Of a DNA stretch of 64,000 bases, positions 29,914-52,677 are shown one piece after another. The stretch is from assembly GCA_037917685.1 (NCBI GenBank), contig JAVCBU010000014.1:1-64000 (forward strand). Reading direction: 5' to 3'. Below the pieces are notes generated by a model. It was not told the origin of the DNA. It was given only the letters and a program-made list of their open reading frames with translations, and made no database searches. Positions within the stretch are counted from its first letter, which is position 1; each line of letters opens with the position of its first letter. The position numbers were made by a program, and so were the translations under genes. The DNA comes from Thermoproteota archaeon. GTDB lineage: Archaea > Korarchaeota > Korarchaeia > Korarchaeales > JAOZGB01.

Positions 29914-30627
29914 ATGCTTTCAAGAGCTGCCGGTGTTCCAAGAACGAAGATTTACGATGTTTTAAGGTCGCTCAGATCTAAGGGGTGGGTAAAAATATAC
30001 TCAGGCTTTCCACTGCTTTTCAAAGCTGTTCCCCCCTCTGAAGTCTTTAACATGGTTAGGATGGAGTTTGAGAGTCTTATCGAGGCTGTCCAGACGGCGC
30101 TTAACATGGAAGGTGACGTTAAGATGGAAAGATTCCTTATAAAGAAGGCGGATATTGGCCTTAGAATCTTGAAAGAGGAGATATCCAAAGCTAAAACCGT
30201 GTGGATTAGTAATGCCACTGCTGAATTCGTAAAGGATGTACGTGATTCCTTTGCTGAGGGTTCAGAGGTGAGGATCCTACTTTTCCCCGGCAAGGAAAGA
30301 GATGGAAAGGTGAACGCCGAATTTAGAAGGGCTGATGGAAGGATAGTATGTATGGTCCGGGGCGTAGAGGTTCAATCAATATCTCTTATAATTGATGAAG
30401 AGAGGATATTCACGGTTTACAAGGACCCAGTAGAAAACAGGTACGTAGTGGAGGAGATGCTGTATGAGGAATGCAGTAAATGCTTCATAGAGTGGTTCTA
30501 CATGGGCTGGGAGTCTGCAGAGAGGTGCCAGTTACTCTACAAACCTTTCCAGCACCACAGCTACCGCTACAACTCCTTGTATTTTCGTTCCATACACATT
30601 CCCCGCCTCCGGCCCCACCTCCACTAG
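29914..30627 (+). pseudogene. TrmB-family regulator, 5'-truncated, 3' end running into foreign DNA
   Basis: Starts mid-HTH (LSRAAGVPRTKIYDVL..L..KGWV); after GWESAE it reads antisense through another gene fragment. Confidence 0.7.
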
Positions 30628-30805
30628 GCTGACTAGTTGTTGTAGCGCCACCTCCTCCACCGTTAAAAACCGGAGGTGCAATAATAGCATAGTAAGGCTC
30701 ATAGGGTATGTTAAAAGAGTTCAAGTTAACTTGAACTATTACGTAGTCTCCGGGATGGAACGGACTCTTACAATCGTAACTCAATTTACCGTTTTCAAAC
30801 AACAA
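30525..30805 (-). pseudogene. Fragment of a Gly/Cys-rich extracellular protein
   Basis: GGGGGATTTSQPSGGGAGGG linker then CVW...CSGSC...C; no convincing start; truncated at the TrmB junction. Confidence 0.45.
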
Positions 30806-30982
30806 ACCAAGTAAGGTTTTCTTTCAACGAGCATCCTACTTTCACATTCTTCCAAGAGATTAGAAACACCCCTCCTTAAAAACTTATAGTAATAAAACAG
30901 TAAAGTGAAACAAAAAACAAGAAGAATCGGGATAAACAGTTTCTTACTCATACATTACTTTTTTTGTTTTTTTAATATAAAT

Positions 30983-33385
30983 TTATTTTTTTAATTTTTT
31001 AAACCACCAGAAAGCTACAGGATCGAACTCTACAATATACACTTTGTATTTTTCCCAATGGTAGCCATCATTCCAATCATGCGTATACAATTCACTTTCA
31101 GGAATAGGATTTTTAAGTCTCCAATATCCAATGGCATACATCCACTTATTACCATCCCAATAAGGTGTGATACCATGTGTTATTGCCCAGTCTATCGCCG
31201 CTCTTGTAGGGATTCCTAGCACTTGCCCAATCGTGTTGACATAAAAACATGCGGGTAGACACGAAACCTTCATATTATCAATTTGAAGTGGTGTAGGATA
31301 AGGCCATTCTGTAATTGGGCCACCGCTATAAATAACTTTTCTATAAGCAAAATTCAGAATAGAATATACACTTACGTGCAACATTCCCTTGTACATTTCA
31401 TGTAAAGCTTTCAAATCTCCTATAGGTGTAACTATTATACTTTTAACATGATTAGGTTCAACGTACAGGCTACGATAAGCGGGGAAAAACGTATCAACAA
31501 CATTAACAAGTTCCCTTACTTTTAACTTTTTCAAATTAAACTTAGTCTCCTTCTTCTCATTTATGTTGACGAAGAAATTAGCCAAATCAGCAAGGTACTT
31601 ATCGTAATCAACCTTGCTGGGATAGACTTTTAGCTCATCGTCTTTCTTAACCGGATAATCCCAGACAACACTTAAAGCTATAGCCATATTCCCATAATCG
31701 TTAACATAGCTGGGTATAGCTTTCCTAACCACGTCAAGCAGTATGTACAAAGCAGCATCTGGGTAATCTTCAGAGCCAAAAGAATCAAAAAGCTTGCCAG
31801 TAAAACTGCAGTTGTAGAACAACCAAGCTAAGTTATCCCTTATAACATCAAAACCCTTCCCCTTCCCTTCAGCAAAAACAACGTAGCTCCTAACCTTTCC
31901 TATATCTCCTTTTCTCTCCAAATCCCTAACTTCATCGTTGGGGTCAAAGCTTACCGGTAACCCATCCTTATCCTTATCTATCAAAGGTTGCAACCCATCC
32001 GGCGTATAATTGCTATCCATATCCAAAGTTCCAAACGAAGTTTCCCTCCTGGTTTTCCCAGCAACTATAACAACCGTTTGTCCCTGCTTGAATACATCTT
32101 TCTTAACGAAAACAAAAGCTTTTCCGGGATTGTTGATGAGCAAGTACTTCTCAGTTGGATTCAAAATGTTCGAAGTTACGTTGCTTATTCCATAAGCAAG
32201 ATGACCTCCGAGTATTAACAAGTTCGAAGAGTTTGAAATCTTGCTAAAATCGGCAGAGCTGTTAACCCTTAAATAACGTATCTTAGCAAATTCAAGCTCA
32301 CCAGCAATTCTTTGCCCATTAAGCTTCCAATCTATATCGTTAGCAAGTATACCAACCTCTTCATCGTCCTGCTTTAAACACTTAACCTTGTTAAACGAAT
32401 TGCAACCACTCGTTTGATACAACTTCCCAGCCAAGTATCCACACACAGGTACAATTCCCTCAACGAGAAGTGGGAAAAGGCTGGATTTCTTTATCCCTTT
32501 AACGTAATCCTTAAACCTCTCCCACCAACTCTTCTTCTTTCTTTCAGCATCTCTAAAGGCCTCCCTTAATTCATACCTCAAAAGCAGGTAATCCATAAGT
32601 TCTTTTCCCCTATACTTTTTAAACCTCTTCCTTATCTCCTCAAACAAATCGTTCTCTTCATCGCTTTCAATTATAGTATCCAAAGAAACCAATTTACCAT
32701 CAACTTTAACGTACGTATCTTTAGGGCTCACCATGTACTCCTTACTACTTACCAAAAATCTTGACAGTTCAAGCGAGCTTACACCAAGCCCTTCGAATAC
32801 TTCCCTTATTTCGTCATAACTATCAGTCACTATAACTCTCCTGTGTGGGTCTATTACTGCTGTTAACTCGTCTCCACCTTTTTTGAAAAGTTTAAAATCT
32901 TTATGCTTGTATATCAGTAACCTACTATACCCATCTATCGAATGCTTCCTTGCATAGAACCCATCACCCAAAGCGTAGAGCCCATTATTCAAATCGTAAC
33001 TCTCTATTTTTAACCATAGCCTCTCTAAAGCAAACTCCGGCTCTTCCAAGGCTTTCAGATAGAATTTCCTCTTTTTCTCCCACTCCTCCAAACGCTCCTT
33101 TACAGCCCTTTCTATAATTCCTCTGTTCTCATCGAATTTTTTAATAACTCCCATTGGCAAGCCCAAGGTTCGTGAAGCCTCTTCAAGAAATTCCTTATCC
33201 TCCATTCCTGAAGCAACCCTCAAACTTTCAACGTAATCGTCACAACTTCCCCAAACCCCAACCATAGATTCGAAAAATTCTATAGGGGGTAAGCCAGATT
33301 TTTCCATCTCACCTATTGCAAAATTCAACAGCTCCCTGTCTAGGTCTAACAATGAGAACCTTCCAAACCCTTCTACAGGCATCAT
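30983..33385 (-). CDS. Large AT-rich hypothetical protein: charged N-terminal domain, central hydrophobic segment, S-layer-like domain, transglutaminase-like C-terminus
   Basis: ILGGHLA...IVAGKTRRET; SC......LGIP......THG..YWDG.KW; Lys/Glu-rich and low GC. Confidence 0.65.
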   Translation of the reverse strand: MMPVEGFGRFSLLDLDRELLNFAIGEMEKSGLPPIEFFESMVGVWGSCDDYVESLRVASGMEDKEFLEEASRTLGLPMGVIKKFDENRGIIERAVKERLEEWEKKRKFYLKALEEPEFALERLWLKIESYDLNNGLYALGDGFYARKHSIDGYSRLLIYKHKDFKLFKKGGDELTAVIDPHRRVIVTDSYDEIREVFEGLGVSSLELSRFLVSSKEYMVSPKDTYVKVDGKLVSLDTIIESDEENDLFEEIRKRFKKYRGKELMDYLLLRYELREAFRDAERKKKSWWERFKDYVKGIKKSSLFPLLVEGIVPVCGYLAGKLYQTSGCNSFNKVKCLKQDDEEVGILANDIDWKLNGQRIAGELEFAKIRYLRVNSSADFSKISNSSNLLILGGHLAYGISNVTSNILNPTEKYLLINNPGKAFVFVKKDVFKQGQTVVIVAGKTRRETSFGTLDMDSNYTPDGLQPLIDKDKDGLPVSFDPNDEVRDLERKGDIGKVRSYVVFAEGKGKGFDVIRDNLAWLFYNCSFTGKLFDSFGSEDYPDAALYILLDVVRKAIPSYVNDYGNMAIALSVVWDYPVKKDDELKVYPSKVDYDKYLADLANFFVNINEKKETKFNLKKLKVRELVNVVDTFFPAYRSLYVEPNHVKSIIVTPIGDLKALHEMYKGMLHVSVYSILNFAYRKVIYSGGPITEWPYPTPLQIDNMKVSCLPACFYVNTIGQVLGIPTRAAIDWAITHGITPYWDGNKWMYAIGYWRLKNPIPESELYTHDWNDGYHWEKYKVYIVEFDPVAFWWFKKLKK

Positions 33386-33789
33386 ATCCCCACTACTCTT
33401 TAGCTATTAAAACACAAATTTATATTGAAAACACAAATTTAAAGCTCACCACCATGCGATATAAGTGTGTGTAAACATTCGAAACATTCGAAACAGCATG
33501 GAGATACTCCAAGAAATGGTAGCATCTCTCCCCTTTTTAAGTCACTAGATAACATAGTGAAATATGTCATAACTTTCATTAAATCGTTATCTAATGACAG
33601 CCCAGACGCACTACCTGTCTTTAAATGTCTTTAAATGCTACATCGCGCGCAGCAACAACATAAAGGTTTTCTCACCCACAGATGATATCCTGCCATTAAC
33701 CTAAAAGAGTATAGTCATGAAGATCCTTGCGCCAAATTTATGTTACAACGAGAAAAGGAAACTCCAATTTAGGAATATTTATAAATGAA

Positions 33790-33816
33790 TACATGTATTA
33801 CATGTACTAAATGTAT
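33790..33816. promoter_or_regulatory. Three tandem 9-bp repeats (TACATGTAT/TACATGTAC/TAAATGTAT), probable operator
   Basis: Located between TATA-like TTTATAAA (33778-33785) and the start of an RHH-like gene. Confidence 0.55.
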
Positions 33817-33830
33817 TATGGGGTGATGGG

Positions 33831-34352
33831 ATGGGTGAGCCGGAGAAGAGGGAGGTAATAAGTATCCGGGGTATAGACAGGAATCTCTACTCAAGGGTCT
33901 TGCTACTTGCAAGGGAAACAGGGAAAACGGTGGGGGAAATATTGAATGAGGCGATGGATACATATCTAACCCTGAAGGAAAACCTGAAGGGAAGCATGGC
34001 GACATTGATAGATAAGCTTGAACAGTTAGGGGTGGAGTTTAAGGAGGGATTTAAGTCAGCTGCAAAACATGAAATCTCTGACTTAGATGAGCTTGTTGTA
34101 ACAAAGAAAGACTTAGAATACCTTAAAAACAATAAGGTATCCTTTAAGAGAATAAGAAGACTTATATTCTCGAAAGATGTGGATCCAGAAACCTTTGAGA
34201 GATATATAGACACAATAGCATTTTGCGGGGAGGTTGCGGCTCCCCCTCAACTACCCAAACTGCTAATCCTATCAAGATGTAGGCATGTTAACAGAATTTT
34301 AACAGCAACCGAGGAATACTTGGAGTTAACAGGCCTCTACGGCCAGGAATAG
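33831..34352 (+). CDS. Hypothetical protein with RHH-like N-terminus
   Basis: VISIRGIDRNLY...ARETGKTVGEILNEAM. Confidence 0.7.
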   Translation: MGEPEKREVISIRGIDRNLYSRVLLLARETGKTVGEILNEAMDTYLTLKENLKGSMATLIDKLEQLGVEFKEGFKSAAKHEISDLDELVVTKKDLEYLKNNKVSFKRIRRLIFSKDVDPETFERYIDTIAFCGEVAAPPQLPKLLILSRCRHVNRILTATEEYLELTGLYGQE

Positions 34353-48123: not shown

Positions 48124-50577
48124 TTATGCTTCCAGCTCTATCGTCCCCACAGTTTCTTCCACTTCCTCCATTTTCTCCCATGCTTGAGTCGGTGTTGCAG
48201 ATGTCTTTGATGGGTAAATCTCCGCATCGGTGGCTACGATTACTGGGAAGCGTATGGGGGAGGCCATCCCCCATACGAGAGCATAGTGGTCCGGAAGATC
48301 AGGTAGATACCTAAATATTCTGCTTGACCCCTGCTCCGTATACTTAGCTATCGCCTCCTGGTCATTTCCAGACCGCATTCTAAAGCATACGACAGTGTTG
48401 CACTGGCTTATCACGTTTTTCGAGACGTAAGCTGGTCTCTGGGTTAGAATTATAAATCCTACATTGTAGCCTCCTGCCTGGCTTATTGCCTCAGTTATTA
48501 TCTTATCAATGCCTGCGGCCTGGGGGTTCGCGATCATCGGGGCTCCCCTCTCAGGGACGAAGTACTGGGCTTCTTCTACTATGTTTATCACGGAGAAGTC
48601 TCCCTTGTCTCTTCTTTCAATTGCTTCCTCCATAATCCTCTCAATTATACTTCTGACAGCCATGAACTGGTCCATGTAGTTATAATCCACGCTTAAGTCG
48701 ACAACTACTATTGGAAACTTCCTTACTACCTCAACTGGATCCAGAGGTTCGCTCATATCTTTTTCAAATAGAACCCTCCCCCTTCTCCTAAGCCAGTATT
48801 CTATCTCCTTTACGAGTGCTTCGCCGCCTCTCATGCTTGTTGATTCCACGATTTCAACGACTTCCCTGAGTATGTTCTCGGGGGTGAGCCTCTTCCCTCT
48901 TTCCCCAACAGATATTATGGCTTCGAGGGCAAGTTTGCCAACGCGTCGGTTAGGGTCGAGGCCGAGCATCTTAACCATGCTCCGCGGGTCTGGATAGCCG
49001 TTGTTCCCCATAAACTCTCGATAGGTGAAAATAGCCCCGCCGTAGTCTGCGAGTAGCGAGTACTCTCCTCTCCTGTCGAAAACTATGAATCTAGGCCTGG
49101 GCTTAAGGAAGGAGGCTGAGTTTCTAACAAGATTCAATGCGAAGGTGCTGTTGTGTAGGAAAAGCTGGTTTGCCATGAAGTTTTCCTCCATCTCCACGCC
49201 TAGGTCGTATACATAGCCGTCGAAAGGCATCTGGTAAACGTCTAACACTCTGTCAAGAATTATCTCTGAATCTAAAACCTGCCGGATGAAGTTTATTGAT
49301 TTTTCAGCTTCTTTAGTCTTTAGCTTGGAGGATAAGCTAAGCATGTGGGCTGGTAGACCCAGTGAGAAGCTCGGCTGAACCCCACCTAGATCTTTGTAGA
49401 GTGTGAGGATGCTTTTAGCCCTTTCAGCCTTTCCCCTTGGGGAGCCGGCTTCCTGGATCCATTGAACCTTCCTCTTGAAGAGTTTAGCCTTCTCCAGTCT
49501 TTCTGTGAGAAATCTACATACGGATTTCAGCTGCCTATAGCTTAGAGTATCGCAGCCTCTCTCGTATAGGGAGAGCTTACTCTGAGGTATCCCGGTTCTA
49601 AGTGACAGGCTCTCCTGGCTTAGTCCGAGTAGGATTCTAGCCCTGTGTACAATCCTAGAAAGGCATAGGTAGTCTTTGTCTTCAAGGGTGTATCCGCAGG
49701 ATTTGACTTTTGACCCGGGGGATATAAGCCAGAAATCTCTTCTCACATCTCTTGCTCTCTGGACGCGTACTCTTCTCCCATCCCAAACGAGGACTGAGTG
49801 GTCTCCTGTTACCCTTATGGTTTTGCCACTCCTTGTTATAATATTGTAGATCTTACGGTAGTACTTATGCCTGTAGACAGTGTAGACCTTGCCAAGTGTA
49901 GGCTTATAGGATACTCTGTTCAGGGCGATAGTCATAAATCTTCCATCAAGCAATATTTGCCTTACACCGTGGCGGTAGAATCCATCCACAAAGTCCTTTA
50001 TCTCACAGTCAACTGTGACGGCTTCCCTGGCATCATATACTCTTATAAGGGCATCGCCGGAGATGCTTTTACCGCTCCTCGTCATCCCTGCCACAAACAT
50101 GTGGCCTCTCGCCACTCCGTCAAGGTCTAGGGCGTAGGGCATTTCAAGACCTTCAACCTTTCCGATTGGAACCATAATTCCCCCAGAGCCGTGGCTGTTG
50201 AGGAGGTAGCCTATAAAACCCTTCAACAGTTCAACGTCGGCTTTGTATATCTCGCTCCACGTTGGAGGGGCAACGTCAAGGCTTCTAAACTTTCCATCAT
50301 AGACGTATCCTAGAGGCTCGCATATCGCTACAAGGTACTCGAGTTCTTTCCCAAAACCCGCAGTAATACCTATGCTACCGGCCAGGGCGCCTATCCTCCC
50401 AGCCTCCATTCCATAGTTCATGCTCCTGATATCGAAAACCCTAATAATCACTGGAACATCATGGTATGGATGTTTTAACATGAAATACTGTCCAAGCTTC
50501 ACTTTAGAGTCCCGTTTGACAACGAAGGCTATTTTCCTCGGGCTGCAGTTATGAAGCGTGTACCCTACAACTTTCAT
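48124..50577 (-). CDS. herA: HerA/FtsK-family ATPase (HAS barrel plus ATPase) interrupted by an intein
   Basis: HMFVAGMTRSGK/S, FDRRGEY, IVEEAQ, TQRP, SQCNT; downstream of nurA with overlapping start/stop. Confidence 0.88.
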   Translation of the reverse strand: MKVVGYTLHNCSPRKIAFVVKRDSKVKLGQYFMLKHPYHDVPVIIRVFDIRSMNYGMEAGRIGALAGSIGITAGFGKELEYLVAICEPLGYVYDGKFRSLDVAPPTWSEIYKADVELLKGFIGYLLNSHGSGGIMVPIGKVEGLEMPYALDLDGVARGHMFVAGMTRSGKSISGDALIRVYDAREAVTVDCEIKDFVDGFYRHGVRQILLDGRFMTIALNRVSYKPTLGKVYTVYRHKYYRKIYNIITRSGKTIRVTGDHSVLVWDGRRVRVQRARDVRRDFWLISPGSKVKSCGYTLEDKDYLCLSRIVHRARILLGLSQESLSLRTGIPQSKLSLYERGCDTLSYRQLKSVCRFLTERLEKAKLFKRKVQWIQEAGSPRGKAERAKSILTLYKDLGGVQPSFSLGLPAHMLSLSSKLKTKEAEKSINFIRQVLDSEIILDRVLDVYQMPFDGYVYDLGVEMEENFMANQLFLHNSTFALNLVRNSASFLKPRPRFIVFDRRGEYSLLADYGGAIFTYREFMGNNGYPDPRSMVKMLGLDPNRRVGKLALEAIISVGERGKRLTPENILREVVEIVESTSMRGGEALVKEIEYWLRRRGRVLFEKDMSEPLDPVEVVRKFPIVVVDLSVDYNYMDQFMAVRSIIERIMEEAIERRDKGDFSVINIVEEAQYFVPERGAPMIANPQAAGIDKIITEAISQAGGYNVGFIILTQRPAYVSKNVISQCNTVVCFRMRSGNDQEAIAKYTEQGSSRIFRYLPDLPDHYALVWGMASPIRFPVIVATDAEIYPSKTSATPTQAWEKMEEVEETVGTIELEA
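49150..50067 (-). mobile_element. Intein (306 aa, Ser1...His-Asn, +1 Ser) in the HerA Walker A motif, containing an XRE-type HTH
   Basis: Block A SISGDA, block B VTGDH, block F YVYDLGV, block G ENFMAN.LFLHN/S; removal restores GMTRSGKST. Confidence 0.92.
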
Positions 50578-51713
50578 TTCACACCACCCACAACCCTCTC
50601 CCCGTACTGTAACACTAAGAGCTTTAAGACATCATTCGCCAGTTCTCCATCCTTAACAGCCTTAAGAACCTTTGAAATAAAGCCTAGAAGCATGCTATCA
50701 GCAACCTTATCGGTTACCTTTGAGTAGTCGTCCACTATCATCAGTGGAACCGGCACCCCCGTGGAAGGCTCAGCCAGATGATAGAGCAGAGTAGCTAGCC
50801 CTCCAATGTTATCACGATTCCAGCCCGAGACTTCGACTCTGTAAACTCTTCCTCCAACACTCTTCATGTAGAAGCAGTATAAACCGTCGAGGATTTCTGT
50901 GTCACCATTAAAGTATGATTTATACCTGGAATATGCTATATCACCTATTTCTATCGGCCTCGTGAACTCGCCCACTTCGAGAACCTGGGAAAGCAACGCC
51001 GAATCTCTAAGCCTCAAACCAAGCTTTTTAGATAGGAACATGCTCCTGCTACGCTTGACGAAGCCTATAACCGGGATCTCCATATTTCGCGCCTTGGATA
51101 ATAGGCTGAGGAGGCTTCCGACAAGTTTCCTCATATCTTCCTTTAGGCCTAGAAGCTTTAGGTGTGATGGCGCAACTATGGGGCCGTCGAGGATAAGCAT
51201 GTCAGGCCTCCAGAGGTTAAGAGCACGAATCCCCATTTCAAACTGTAGATGATAGCCTAGAATCGATGCTTTGAGCCTCGGCCTCGAAACCTGATTCCAT
51301 AGGCCAAGACCCTCCAGGATGCCTGCTATTGGCTCTGAGACTAGGTTTGAACCTTGGAAGAGACCTGCAACACCGCAGATTACAGGTATGAAACCGGAGA
51401 TCAGCTCTCGGCCGTTTATTCCCACGTCTACACATGCGAGGAGCCATGTTTCATTGTTTTGATATGTTGATATACGGCCTGCGACAAGGTTACGGTATTC
51501 CTTAAATCCAGCCGAGAAATTTTTGAAGATGGAAAAATTATCCTCTAATATGCTGTTGAGGAGGACGGGTATACCCCCGATAGTATCATATTTTACTCTT
51601 AGATTCTCCCTATTATCCCTGGCAACCATACTTCCGGACAATGTGACACCCCGGGGTGCCTTCTTCACACTATTCGAAGCCATAAGCATAAGTGTGAGAA
51701 GGCTAAGACTCAT
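50574..51713 (-). CDS. nurA: NurA-family nuclease
   Basis: ACVD, FE, ILDGP, GFVKR, YRVE, GVPVPL..VD; adjacent to herA. Confidence 0.8.
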   Translation of the reverse strand: MSLSLLTLMLMASNSVKKAPRGVTLSGSMVARDNRENLRVKYDTIGGIPVLLNSILEDNFSIFKNFSAGFKEYRNLVAGRISTYQNNETWLLACVDVGINGRELISGFIPVICGVAGLFQGSNLVSEPIAGILEGLGLWNQVSRPRLKASILGYHLQFEMGIRALNLWRPDMLILDGPIVAPSHLKLLGLKEDMRKLVGSLLSLLSKARNMEIPVIGFVKRSRSMFLSKKLGLRLRDSALLSQVLEVGEFTRPIEIGDIAYSRYKSYFNGDTEILDGLYCFYMKSVGGRVYRVEVSGWNRDNIGGLATLLYHLAEPSTGVPVPLMIVDDYSKVTDKVADSMLLGFISKVLKAVKDGELANDVLKLLVLQYGERVVGGVK

Positions 51714-51793
51714 AAGCGGTTAGAATATTTAAATTACTCGCCTCCTGGAGCTCCATGTCAGGAAAAAATGATGATTCCAATTTTTTCAGAGAT

Positions 51794-51866
51794 GTTGGAA
51801 AGTTTTTGAACCATAAATTTTATATTTTACATCAGCCATAATTTATTTGTTCAAAAAATTTTGATA
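51794..51866. promoter_or_regulatory. Two imperfect palindromes, consensus GTTCAAA-N4-TTTGAAC, in the divergent promoter region
   Basis: GTTGGAAAGTTTTTGAAC at 51794-51811 and GTTCAAAAAATTTTGATA at 51849-51866, flanking TTTTATATTT. Confidence 0.55.
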
Positions 51867-51903
51867 AAATCTAGGAGGCTTCCTCACAGGGAGAGGATAA
51901 ATC

Positions 51904-52677
51904 ATGGCAGACATAGTATACATAACAGCTCAAGACCCAGATGAAGACCTCATGATGACATGTCACAGAAGCAAACCAGCAAAAAAGATAATCGTAATAC
52001 GAGATGACGGTTCATACGGGAGCGAGGAGTGGCAGATACAATGTGAATCCACGGTTCAGAAGATAAAAAGGGGGGTATCCTATGCGGGAATAATGGTGGA
52101 AGAAGTCACAGCACCCTACGGAAGCCCGCTCCTCCTACTAAAAAAGGTGGAAGAAACAATAATGTACGAGAAAGGACAGGGAAACGAGGTATACGTAAAC
52201 ATAGGCGCAGGAGACAAAATAGTAAGCACAATGCTATACGTTGCCACAATATTCGCGGGAGGACACCCAGTCAGCCCAAAAGACTATAGAAGCATAGAGC
52301 TACCTCAGATTCCAATGGTAAACATAGGCGAGAAGTCGGTGAGAATACTGAAATTCCTCGTAAAGGTAGGGGGGGCTTCAACCCTAGAGGAGCTTAAAAA
52401 CGTTGTTATAGGAAAGGGTGGGAAACCCTCAAAGTCCCTGGCCCACTACTACATAGTTAACGAGCTGGCTCCCTACAACCTGGTAGAAACGAAGAGAACT
52501 GGGAGAAAACTAAAAGTAGTAATAACAGATAGAGGTAGAACAGTCGCACTACTGGCTGAAGCCTACATTAGAGCTCTAACGAGGGGTATGAAAGCCGTCG
52601 GTAAACCTGAGATGAAAATCGCGGCTGCACCTGTAACCTCTGAGAAGACTATAGCTCCAAACCAGCTGTTAGAGTAG
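51904..52677 (+). CDS. CARF-like plus wHTH transcriptional regulator (Csa3/HFX_2341/DUF6293-like)
   Basis: Rossmann-like N-terminal domain with EVYVNIGAGDKI, IELP linker, wHTH ending TGR...V.ITDRG. Confidence 0.8.
   Translation: MADIVYITAQDPDEDLMMTCHRSKPAKKIIVIRDDGSYGSEEWQIQCESTVQKIKRGVSYAGIMVEEVTAPYGSPLLLLKKVEETIMYEKGQGNEVYVNIGAGDKIVSTMLYVATIFAGGHPVSPKDYRSIELPQIPMVNIGEKSVRILKFLVKVGGASTLEELKNVVIGKGGKPSKSLAHYYIVNELAPYNLVETKRTGRKLKVVITDRGRTVALLAEAYIRALTRGMKAVGKPEMKIAAAPVTSEKTIAPNQLLE

Follow-up and report, generated by a model that had tools for sequence, protein, structure and literature searches.

We confirmed a three-gene cassette in a 64-kb stretch of DNA (the window, 64,000 nucleotides) from an uncultured heat-vent archaeon of a korarchaeon-like lineage: a NurA-type nuclease gene (nurA, 379 codons) and a HerA-type ATPase gene (herA, 817 codons), both on the reverse strand, and, diverging from them on the forward strand, a gene (257 codons) for a regulator with a CARF-like and a winged-helix domain (Table 1). 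By sequence comparison, this set of three genes is chromosomal, vertically inherited and lineage-faithful, and in its phylum it is clearly retained more widely than type III CRISPR systems. We favor, with moderate confidence, the view that it is an autoregulated, ligand-modulated DNA-end-processing cassette. A first-pass annotation of the window had proposed a defense or DNA-degradation system switched on by a nucleotide second messenger; the regulated, non-canonical and conserved cassette that it described stands, whereas defense triggered by cyclic oligoadenylate is probably not its role.

The association was recovered with both regulator and HerA queries. A single-protein query with the regulator gave matches in 16 of 61 genomes (the window's own, G000, included), and a divergent NurA gene of the cassette type adjoins the regulator gene in 11 of the 15 foreign loci. 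A word-index search with the same protein turned up, apart from itself, just two close relatives. Among 12 extended regulator loci, NurA is found in 10 and HerA in eight; two of the loci lacking HerA end at a contig edge, and the other two, with more distant relatives of the regulator, have neither NurA nor HerA. Of the 43 species genomes in our phylum sample (25 of them high-quality), 34 were matched by a profile built from 11 regulators, and NurA is adjacent in 26 of the 30 loci that the profile returned; three of the misses lie at contig ends, and L066 is a true exception. An alignment of HerA C-exteins retrieved 60 loci, from Korarchaeum, Methanodesulfokora, unclassified Thermoproteota and numerous Bathyarchaeia. 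Of these loci, 49 have NurA immediately upstream, and the remaining 11 are cut off on that side by a contig end. Genera differ in the genes around the trio, which makes the trio itself the conserved unit, and the arrangement that the first-pass annotation had singled out recurs across the phylum. Of the outcomes that the annotation had named as counting against it, the two that sequence can show, a sole herA/nurA set in the genome and an absence of conserved linkage, were not observed. The linkage is lineage-specific, since in another archaeal phylum, where the regulator family occurs in 120 of 301 genomes, NurA or HerA adjoins in one of the best 30 loci.

HerA of the cassette type is present in 35 of the 43 genomes and in 24 of the 25 high-quality ones, as compared with 21 and 14 for Cas10. 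Canonical-type HerA, searched with the NCBIfam profile, is found in 34 genomes (21 high-quality); a single-protein query had returned only 17 (10 high-quality), and the idea that canonical HerA is rare in the phylum was rejected on the result of the profile search. In families f3 and f4 the same profile finds no canonical-type HerA, and the cassette type is present. In a HerA tree, which came from a quick search and to which long-branch warnings apply, the Bathyarchaeia rows form one clade (27 rows; Shimodaira–Hasegawa-like approximate likelihood ratio support, 95), and the paralogs from the window's own genome sit on branches of 8.5–10 changes per site. The cassette HerA family is small and distinct: a search of 1.84 billion proteins at E ≤ 1e-30 yields 29 representative clusters.

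The cassette is not the housekeeping copy of these genes. The genome assembly (1.81 Mb in 22 contigs, numbered C1 and so on; 95% complete) contains three NurA loci in a family search. On contig C14, nurA, herA, a Metallophos (Mre11-like) gene and an SMC/Rad50-like gene stand in a row as a canonical operon, whose HerA scores 222 and 184 bits on the NCBIfam models for double-strand-break-repair HerA. The two pairs share the NurA domain, the architecture of HAS-barrel and DUF87 ATPase, and coupled genes; the cassette pair, in contrast, has no mre11 or rad50 next to it (a tblastn search with the genome's own Mre11 and Rad50 at E ≤ 1e-3 found no relative of either on the window's contig), and cassette-type HerAs score only 33–74 bits, over the C-terminal part only, on any HerA equivalog, whether for double-strand-break repair (NF040819, NF040937) or anti-phage function (NF042943, NF042944), against cut-offs of 800–970 (here and below, cut-offs are the curated thresholds of the Pfam, NCBIfam and TIGRFAM profiles). 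The first-pass annotation had likewise found no mre11 or rad50 in the window and suspected a non-housekeeping pair, and both points are confirmed. The third pair (C1:100242-102806, that is, L009 6240-8806, reverse strand) encodes proteins of 367 and 488 residues. We considered it as a second copy of the cassette and rejected this, since its divergent neighbor belongs to the purine-nucleoside-phosphorylase family and its HerA type occurs in just 6 of 43 genomes (5 of the 25 high-quality ones), namely the window's own and those of a single other genus. NurA and HerA of the cassette share 28–30% identity with either paralog, over C-terminal parts only. Downstream of the C1 pair, genes match DUF4388 and the HPr-kinase C-terminal domain weakly. 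Further DUF87/HerA-like ATPase genes were seen at C6:165242-165895 and C14:101291-102148 (open frames of 588 and 720 residues), with no NurA match nearby in the family search.

Residues D96, D176, K220, D237, R292 and D328 of the cassette NurA are invariant in 17 aligned sequences, the canonical NurA of the genome included; the acidic D96, D176 and D328 are candidates for the conserved residues of an RNase-H-like active site. The stop codon of nurA and the start codon of herA overlap as ATGA (gtg aaA TGA aag), confirming the translational coupling seen in the first-pass annotation. The true start of nurA is probably Met9 or Met11 (51689 or 51683) and not the listed ATG; the TATA-like box TTTAAATA lies just 13 nt before the listed ATG, which makes the later starts more likely, and suggests a leaderless or short-leader transcript.

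The herA gene owes its length to an intein, a feature missed in the first-pass annotation, which occupies residues 171–476 of the encoded protein and splits the Walker A loop between its lysine and its serine (GMTRSGK/S...HN/STF). The Pfam profile Intein_splicing matches with 68.2 bits (cut-off 35.8), the TIGRFAMs for the N- and C-terminal intein regions (TIGR01445 and TIGR01443) match as well, and the splicing signature is complete, from S171 through the TGDH and HN motifs to the +1 nucleophile S477. HerA would bind ATP only once the intein has been spliced out and the loop rejoined. The motor motifs are Walker A (GMTRSGK at 164–170, plus S477), Walker B (VEEAQ at 667–671) and TQRP (712–715); both Walker motifs and the QRP motif (Q713, R714 and P715, in the arginine-finger region) are conserved in the aligned orthologs. 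The intein-split HerA of the window stays just under the DUF87 cut-off (21.1 vs. 23.2 bits), which the intein-free HerA of locus L039 passes with 56.6 bits; HAS-barrel matches in the orthologs are weak (19.8–23.4 bits, cut-off 25.2).

The P-loop site is occupied by an intein in seven of nine aligned HerAs of the cassette type, the window's included; the HerA of L039 has none. Among 13 further cassette-type HerAs, 11 have a Pfam intein match, and the P-loop site is among the sites used. An intein is kept at this site in most korarchaeal orthologs, and most Bathyarchaeia copies are without one. Compared with a close relative (L137), the intein shares 79% protein identity and the exteins 93–95%. 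No LAGLIDADG or HNH homing endonuclease was matched in the window's intein with Pfam, which finds a helix-turn-helix domain of the XRE type there instead; HTH_3/HTH_31 domains are also found in the inteins of L036 and L038, and LAGLIDADG_3 was seen in just two inteins of cassette-type HerAs, both from Bathyarchaeia. As side observations, the HerA at L037:4370-6397 (reverse strand, genome G040) has no P-loop intein and instead carries, at a second site between QRPAYVSK and SVISQC, a mini-intein (Intein_splicing, 38.9 bits), and a Bathyarchaeia HerA of 1399 residues (L132:5405-9604, forward strand) has two Intein_splicing stretches plus LAGLIDADG_3, that is, two inteins in one gene. P-loops are reported to be a known hot spot for inteins in archaeal and bacterial ATPases, for example MCM site a, DnaB site b and RFC-S site a (Novikova et al., 2016; PMC4760082), and on that account we treat the HerA intein as an ordinary element; it differs from those described there in its XRE-type helix-turn-helix with no detectable LAGLIDADG, and in its host, as HerA is not named in the main text of that paper (0 occurrences).

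The two transcription units diverge from a shared intergenic region of the size given in the first-pass annotation (Table 1). This spacer shares 86.3% identity with that of L137, compared with only 57–67% for the third codon positions in the three genes, indicating that the spacer is constrained and that all three genes are under purifying selection; in the regulator gene, identity is about 90% at codon positions 1 and 2 and 66.7% at position 3. A palindrome stands out as candidate operator. The pattern TCAAAA-N0-6-TTTTGA has a single match in the window, against 0.06 expected, and a match arose in 6 of 100 shuffles. With a slightly looser pattern, [TG]CAAAA-N0-6-TTTTG[AC], 13 of 24 cassette loci have exactly one copy each, in every case within the divergent promoter, and the remaining 331,937 nt have none; in summary form, the palindrome of these loci is TCAAAA-N2-4-TTTTGA. 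The pattern was chosen once about four loci had shown it, and many of the loci that have it are closely related. A count with TCAAAA-N0-6-TTTTG[AC] gave 34 loci among the 171 fetched; apart from two, these are cassette loci of groups g1, g2 and g4. We regard the palindrome as a strong lead to the operator, short of proof. It covers the point where transcription of the regulator gene is expected to begin, a position that fits autorepression. Scans for sigma-70-type promoters and for terminators, which are unsuited to archaea, gave no excess over shuffles.

Table 1. Predicted features of the nurA–herA–regulator cassette and of its divergent promoter region (positions in the window).
Feature	Position	Strand	Remarks
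herA-type ATPase gene	48124..50577	-	817 codons including the intein; mature protein of 511 residues if spliced
Intein	49150..50067	-	HerA residues 171-476 (306 residues); Ser1, TGDH 257-260, HN 475-476, Ser+1
XRE-type helix-turn-helix within the intein	49507..49644	-	residues 312-357; Pfam HTH_3, 25.4 bits
nurA-type nuclease gene	50574..51713	-	PF09376, 54.6 bits (cut-off 21)
Divergent promoter region	51714..51903		190 bp, 32% G+C
TATA-like box TTTAAATA for nurA-herA	51726..51733	-	unchanged compared with L137; putative promoter element
Second inverted repeat GAAAAAAT-N10-ATTTTTTC	51762..51787		arms 100% complementary, both unchanged in L137
TATA-like box TTTTATATTT for the regulator gene	51818..51827	+	unchanged compared with L137; putative promoter element
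Palindrome TCAAAAAATTTTGA, candidate operator	51851..51864		about 29 nt 3' of the regulator's TATA-like box, 40 nt before the regulator ATG
CARF3/HFX_2341-like regulator gene	51904..52677	+	DUF6293_C, PADLOC CARF3
CARF-like Rossmann domain	51928-52272	+	residues about 9-123
Winged helix	52297-52551	+	residues about 132-216

We assigned the regulator with profiles from several databases. Its winged helix reaches the Pfam cut-off for DUF6293_C (27.6 vs. 27 bits), the PADLOC CARF3 profile PDLC01874 matches with an E-value of 2.1e-24, and Cas_APE2256 of Pfam matches below threshold. The ortholog at L130 passes both HFX_2341_N (64.5 bits) and Csa3_N (28 bits), and the best ortholog scores 48.4 bits on the Csa3 model TIGR01884, below the cut-off of 60.2. 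The regulator-family profile matches solved proteins at modest E-values: the CARF ring nuclease Sso1393 (3qyf, 2e-4), an APE2256-family protein (7pq6, 2e-3) and the winged helix of AF_1382 (1.7e-4). Membership of the CARF3/HFX_2341 group (PF19810 plus PF22665) is supported through the orthologs, which are just 21–29% identical to the window's regulator; all 11 invariant columns fall in the winged-helix half (residues 134–215). According to the regulator profile, the N-terminal domain is full length in 18 genomes, and in genus g2 the match is down to the winged-helix half.

In the model that we propose, the regulator would be a one-component CARF-like and winged-helix protein that most likely binds the palindrome TCAAAA-N2-TTTTGA as a dimer, and by this binding would autoregulate its own gene and set the level of the divergent nurA–herA set. 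The products of the operon are a NurA nuclease of a non-canonical kind and a ring translocase of the HerA type, whose translation is coupled through the ATGA overlap. After splicing of the intein would have restored the Walker A loop and with it ATP binding, the NurA–HerA complex would, judging from its family membership, thread and degrade DNA ends like canonical HerA–NurA. The CARF-like domain probably tunes DNA binding according to a small ligand that likely derives from a nucleotide. In this organism the input could be cyclic oligoadenylate made by the genome's type III system, which cannot serve as the general input. The near-universal distribution of the cassette argues for an inducible role in DNA-end processing, repair or surveillance, and not for a mobile defense island.

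Several observations weigh against this model. Besides the after-the-fact choice of the palindrome pattern, the pattern is missing in 11 of the 24 cassette loci (groups g5, g6, f3, f4 and L122), and the genome contains four further copies of the palindrome (on C6, C7, C18 and C22), against 1.55 expected from mononucleotide shuffles. Control of nurA–herA is suggested by proximity and the shared region, and the position of the palindrome argues for control of the regulator's own gene. The window's regulator remains under the Pfam thresholds for HFX_2341_N (21.7 vs. 30 bits) and Csa3_N (17.6 vs. 27 bits). CARF domains that sense cyclic oligoadenylates have a conserved ligand loop after strand 4, of the type T-G-G-T-K/R; in the regulator family the loop reads N-I-T-G-G-T-R in L037 and L039 and N-I-G-A-G-D-K in the window's protein, and it is lost in the other eight orthologs, so the CARF-like domain may sense nothing, given this degenerate loop. 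A CARF-type regulator gene is present in 20 of the 60 HerA C-extein loci and in no row of the Bathyarchaeia clade of the HerA tree: 13 of 21 Bathyarchaeia loci examined have the same type of nurA–herA with a conserved divergent open reading frame (ORF) of 132–151 residues and without the CARF regulator. Also, a vertically inherited core cassette is compatible with a defense role, since CRISPR-linked nurA–herA pairs of Pyrobaculum are reported to be vertical too (PMC3396285).

The small Bathyarchaeia ORF (for example, L080:4848-5246 and L084:4843-5286, both on the reverse strand) ends in an invariant, winged-helix-like block, GYHYDR.A.AH.LA.LVR; it scores above threshold on no Pfam family, a CARF domain was not detected in it, and hhalign gave no profile similarity to the korarchaeal regulator. 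A regulator replaced by a small protein without a CARF domain is among the facts behind a plainer alternative, in which the cassette is a housekeeping paralog, a constitutive second resection machine next to a plain autorepressor whose CARF-like domain would be a ligand-free dimerization scaffold. The loss of the loop in most orthologs beside a conserved winged helix, the reduction to that half of the profile match in genus g2, the near-universal presence of the cassette, and the families f3 and f4, where the cassette type is present and the NCBIfam profile finds no canonical-type HerA, all fit this alternative. It does not account for an N-terminal domain that is kept at full length in 18 genomes and is under purifying selection (as the codon positions of the regulator indicate, compared with L137), nor for the canonical loop in two orthologs, and we consider it very improbable.

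The cas genes of the genome lie away from the cassette. As the first-pass annotation had remarked for the window, there are no local cas genes: none stands beside the cassette, here or in the flanks of eight relatives inspected, and no CRISPR-like array is present in the window. The type III system that the annotation had left to be looked for in the genome is found on contig C9, as a module of Cas10 with an HD domain and an intact GGDD motif, six RAMP proteins and a Csm2-like subunit; the same contig carries the type I-A genes Cas1, Cas2, Cas4, Csa1 and a helicase. At the very start of contig C15 (C15:3-914, reverse strand, L141), a true APE2256-family CARF gene (96.8 bits), which is cut by the contig end, adjoins an AbiEii-type toxin gene, and its product is probably a type III accessory sensor or ring nuclease. 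A separate observation on C9 is a protein of 523 residues (C9:18142-19713, reverse strand, L139) with Csa3/CasR and CARF3 matches over a MarR-like winged helix only (residues about 170–235), which may be a second, cas-linked regulator.

The Cas10 module on C9 and the CARF protein on C15 make signaling by cyclic oligoadenylate plausible in this cell, and with it the idea of a signal-induced antiviral effector: cyclic oligoadenylate made by Cas10 would bind the CARF domain, the regulator would release or activate the promoter, and NurA–HerA would degrade invading or host DNA. The CARF kinship of the regulator (the CARF3 profile, L130 and the matches to solved CARF proteins) points the same way, as do two published associations: nurA-csm6(APE2256)-herA clusters next to CRISPR arrays in Thermoproteales, in genomes with three or more nurA–herA pairs each (Bernick et al., 2012; PMC3396285), and the listing of HerA/NurA of this kind under “type III coevolved” (Shah et al., 2019; PMC6546367). 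The distribution is hard to reconcile with it. Cas10 is found in 10 of the 18 genomes with a full-length regulator, and, of the 11 among these that are at least 90% complete, none was found in three (G041, G017 and G039), with the reservation that Cas10 may be missed in draft genomes; a CRISPR-made cyclic oligoadenylate therefore cannot be the general signal. The much wider retention of the cassette than of Cas10 among the high-quality genomes, the lack of cas genes and arrays beside it, and the degenerate CARF loop stand against this idea as well; on the PADLOC model for “type III coevolved” HerA the score is only 28.6 bits, and NurA has no match among the PADLOC models; and a characterized relative of the regulator, HFX_2341, is reported in a CRISPR-negative species (PMC11434293). 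We consider an antiviral effector of this kind unlikely, and neither defense as the general role nor a cyclic-oligoadenylate switch as the general mechanism, both of which the first-pass annotation had implied, agrees with a cassette that is near-universal and lineage-faithful.

The closest regulatory precedent is Csa3a of Sulfolobus islandicus, a CARF and winged-helix protein reported to activate the adaptation cas genes together with nurA and herA and to bind their promoters, including that of a stand-alone nurA–herA operon without a link to mre11–rad50 (Liu et al., 2017; PMC5587795). In both cases a CARF and winged-helix factor is placed at nurA–herA promoters, here as a prediction. The gene for Csa3a is part of a cas locus, and its product acts remotely on many promoters, unlike the cassette regulator, which is head-to-head with one nurA–herA pair far from cas genes and falls in another CARF clade (PADLOC CARF3, with scores under the Csa3 thresholds). 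By analogy with the proposal for Csa3a, the cassette could help CRISPR adaptation, with NurA–HerA yielding DNA fragments for spacer capture and the regulator coupling their expression to adaptation, and the presence of Cas1, Cas2, Cas4 and Csa1 on C9 fits this idea. The argument from distribution applies here just as it does to the antiviral effector, none of the five palindrome sites of the genome was found near cas genes or other nurA–herA loci, and knockout of HFX_2341 is reported to have had only mild effects on cas genes (PMC11434293); this role is most improbable.

Other known systems resemble the cassette in part. The Thermoproteales clusters described above share with it paralogous NurA–HerA with a CARF-family gene, three or more pairs per genome and vertical inheritance; as reported (PMC3396285), their CARF gene lies between nurA and herA next to an array, whereas in the cassette it is divergent, carries a winged helix and has no array or cas gene nearby, and the PADLOC models of the “type III coevolved” group match the cassette HerA weakly and its NurA not at all. 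HFX_2341 of Haloferax mediterranei (DUF6293) is reported to be a CRISPR-unlinked, vertically inherited transcriptional repressor (PMC11434293); it is of the same broad family as the cassette regulator (Pfam HFX_2341_N plus DUF6293_C), and both are CRISPR-unlinked and vertically inherited, but the main text of that paper mentions no NurA–HerA neighbor (0 occurrences). In the literature searched we found no description of the trio as a unit; supplements and the CARF census of Makarova et al. (2020; PMC7498327) lay outside that search, and a mention there is possible. New in comparison with the known Csa3a/nurA–herA and nurA-csm6-herA associations are the other lineage, the near-universal presence in it, the candidate operator and the intein-split motor.

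Around the cassette, the neighboring genes encode transporters, a carbohydrate-binding protein and hydrolases. Elsewhere in the window, positions 30001-34000 have a G+C content of 0.40 (vs. about 0.47) and a strongly negative GC skew, and contain an ORF of 800 codons (30983-33385, reverse strand).

A further extension of our model is that the cassette is a phylum-wide, one-component switch for DNA damage or DNA invasion: the CARF3 domain would sense an endogenous, non-CRISPR nucleotide signal, release of the regulator from TCAAAA-N2-TTTTGA would induce dedicated NurA–HerA degradation, and splicing of the long-retained, endonuclease-less P-loop intein would form a second, post-translational gate. 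This is decidedly unlikely as a whole; if true, it would be an archaeal counterpart of an SOS-type circuit, made from “CRISPR-associated” parts.

A CARF domain is usually taken for a receptor of cyclic oligoadenylates that CRISPR systems make, and a stand-alone NurA–HerA pair for either a repair or a defense system. Here, a CARF-type regulator is tied to one NurA–HerA pair in almost every genome of the phylum, whether or not Cas10 is found, and the case advises caution in calling such trios antiviral systems from their domains alone. Because of this tie, the ligand of the CARF3/HFX_2341 group and the role of “extra” NurA–HerA pairs become directly testable, in a set of one regulator, one 14-bp candidate operator and one operon.

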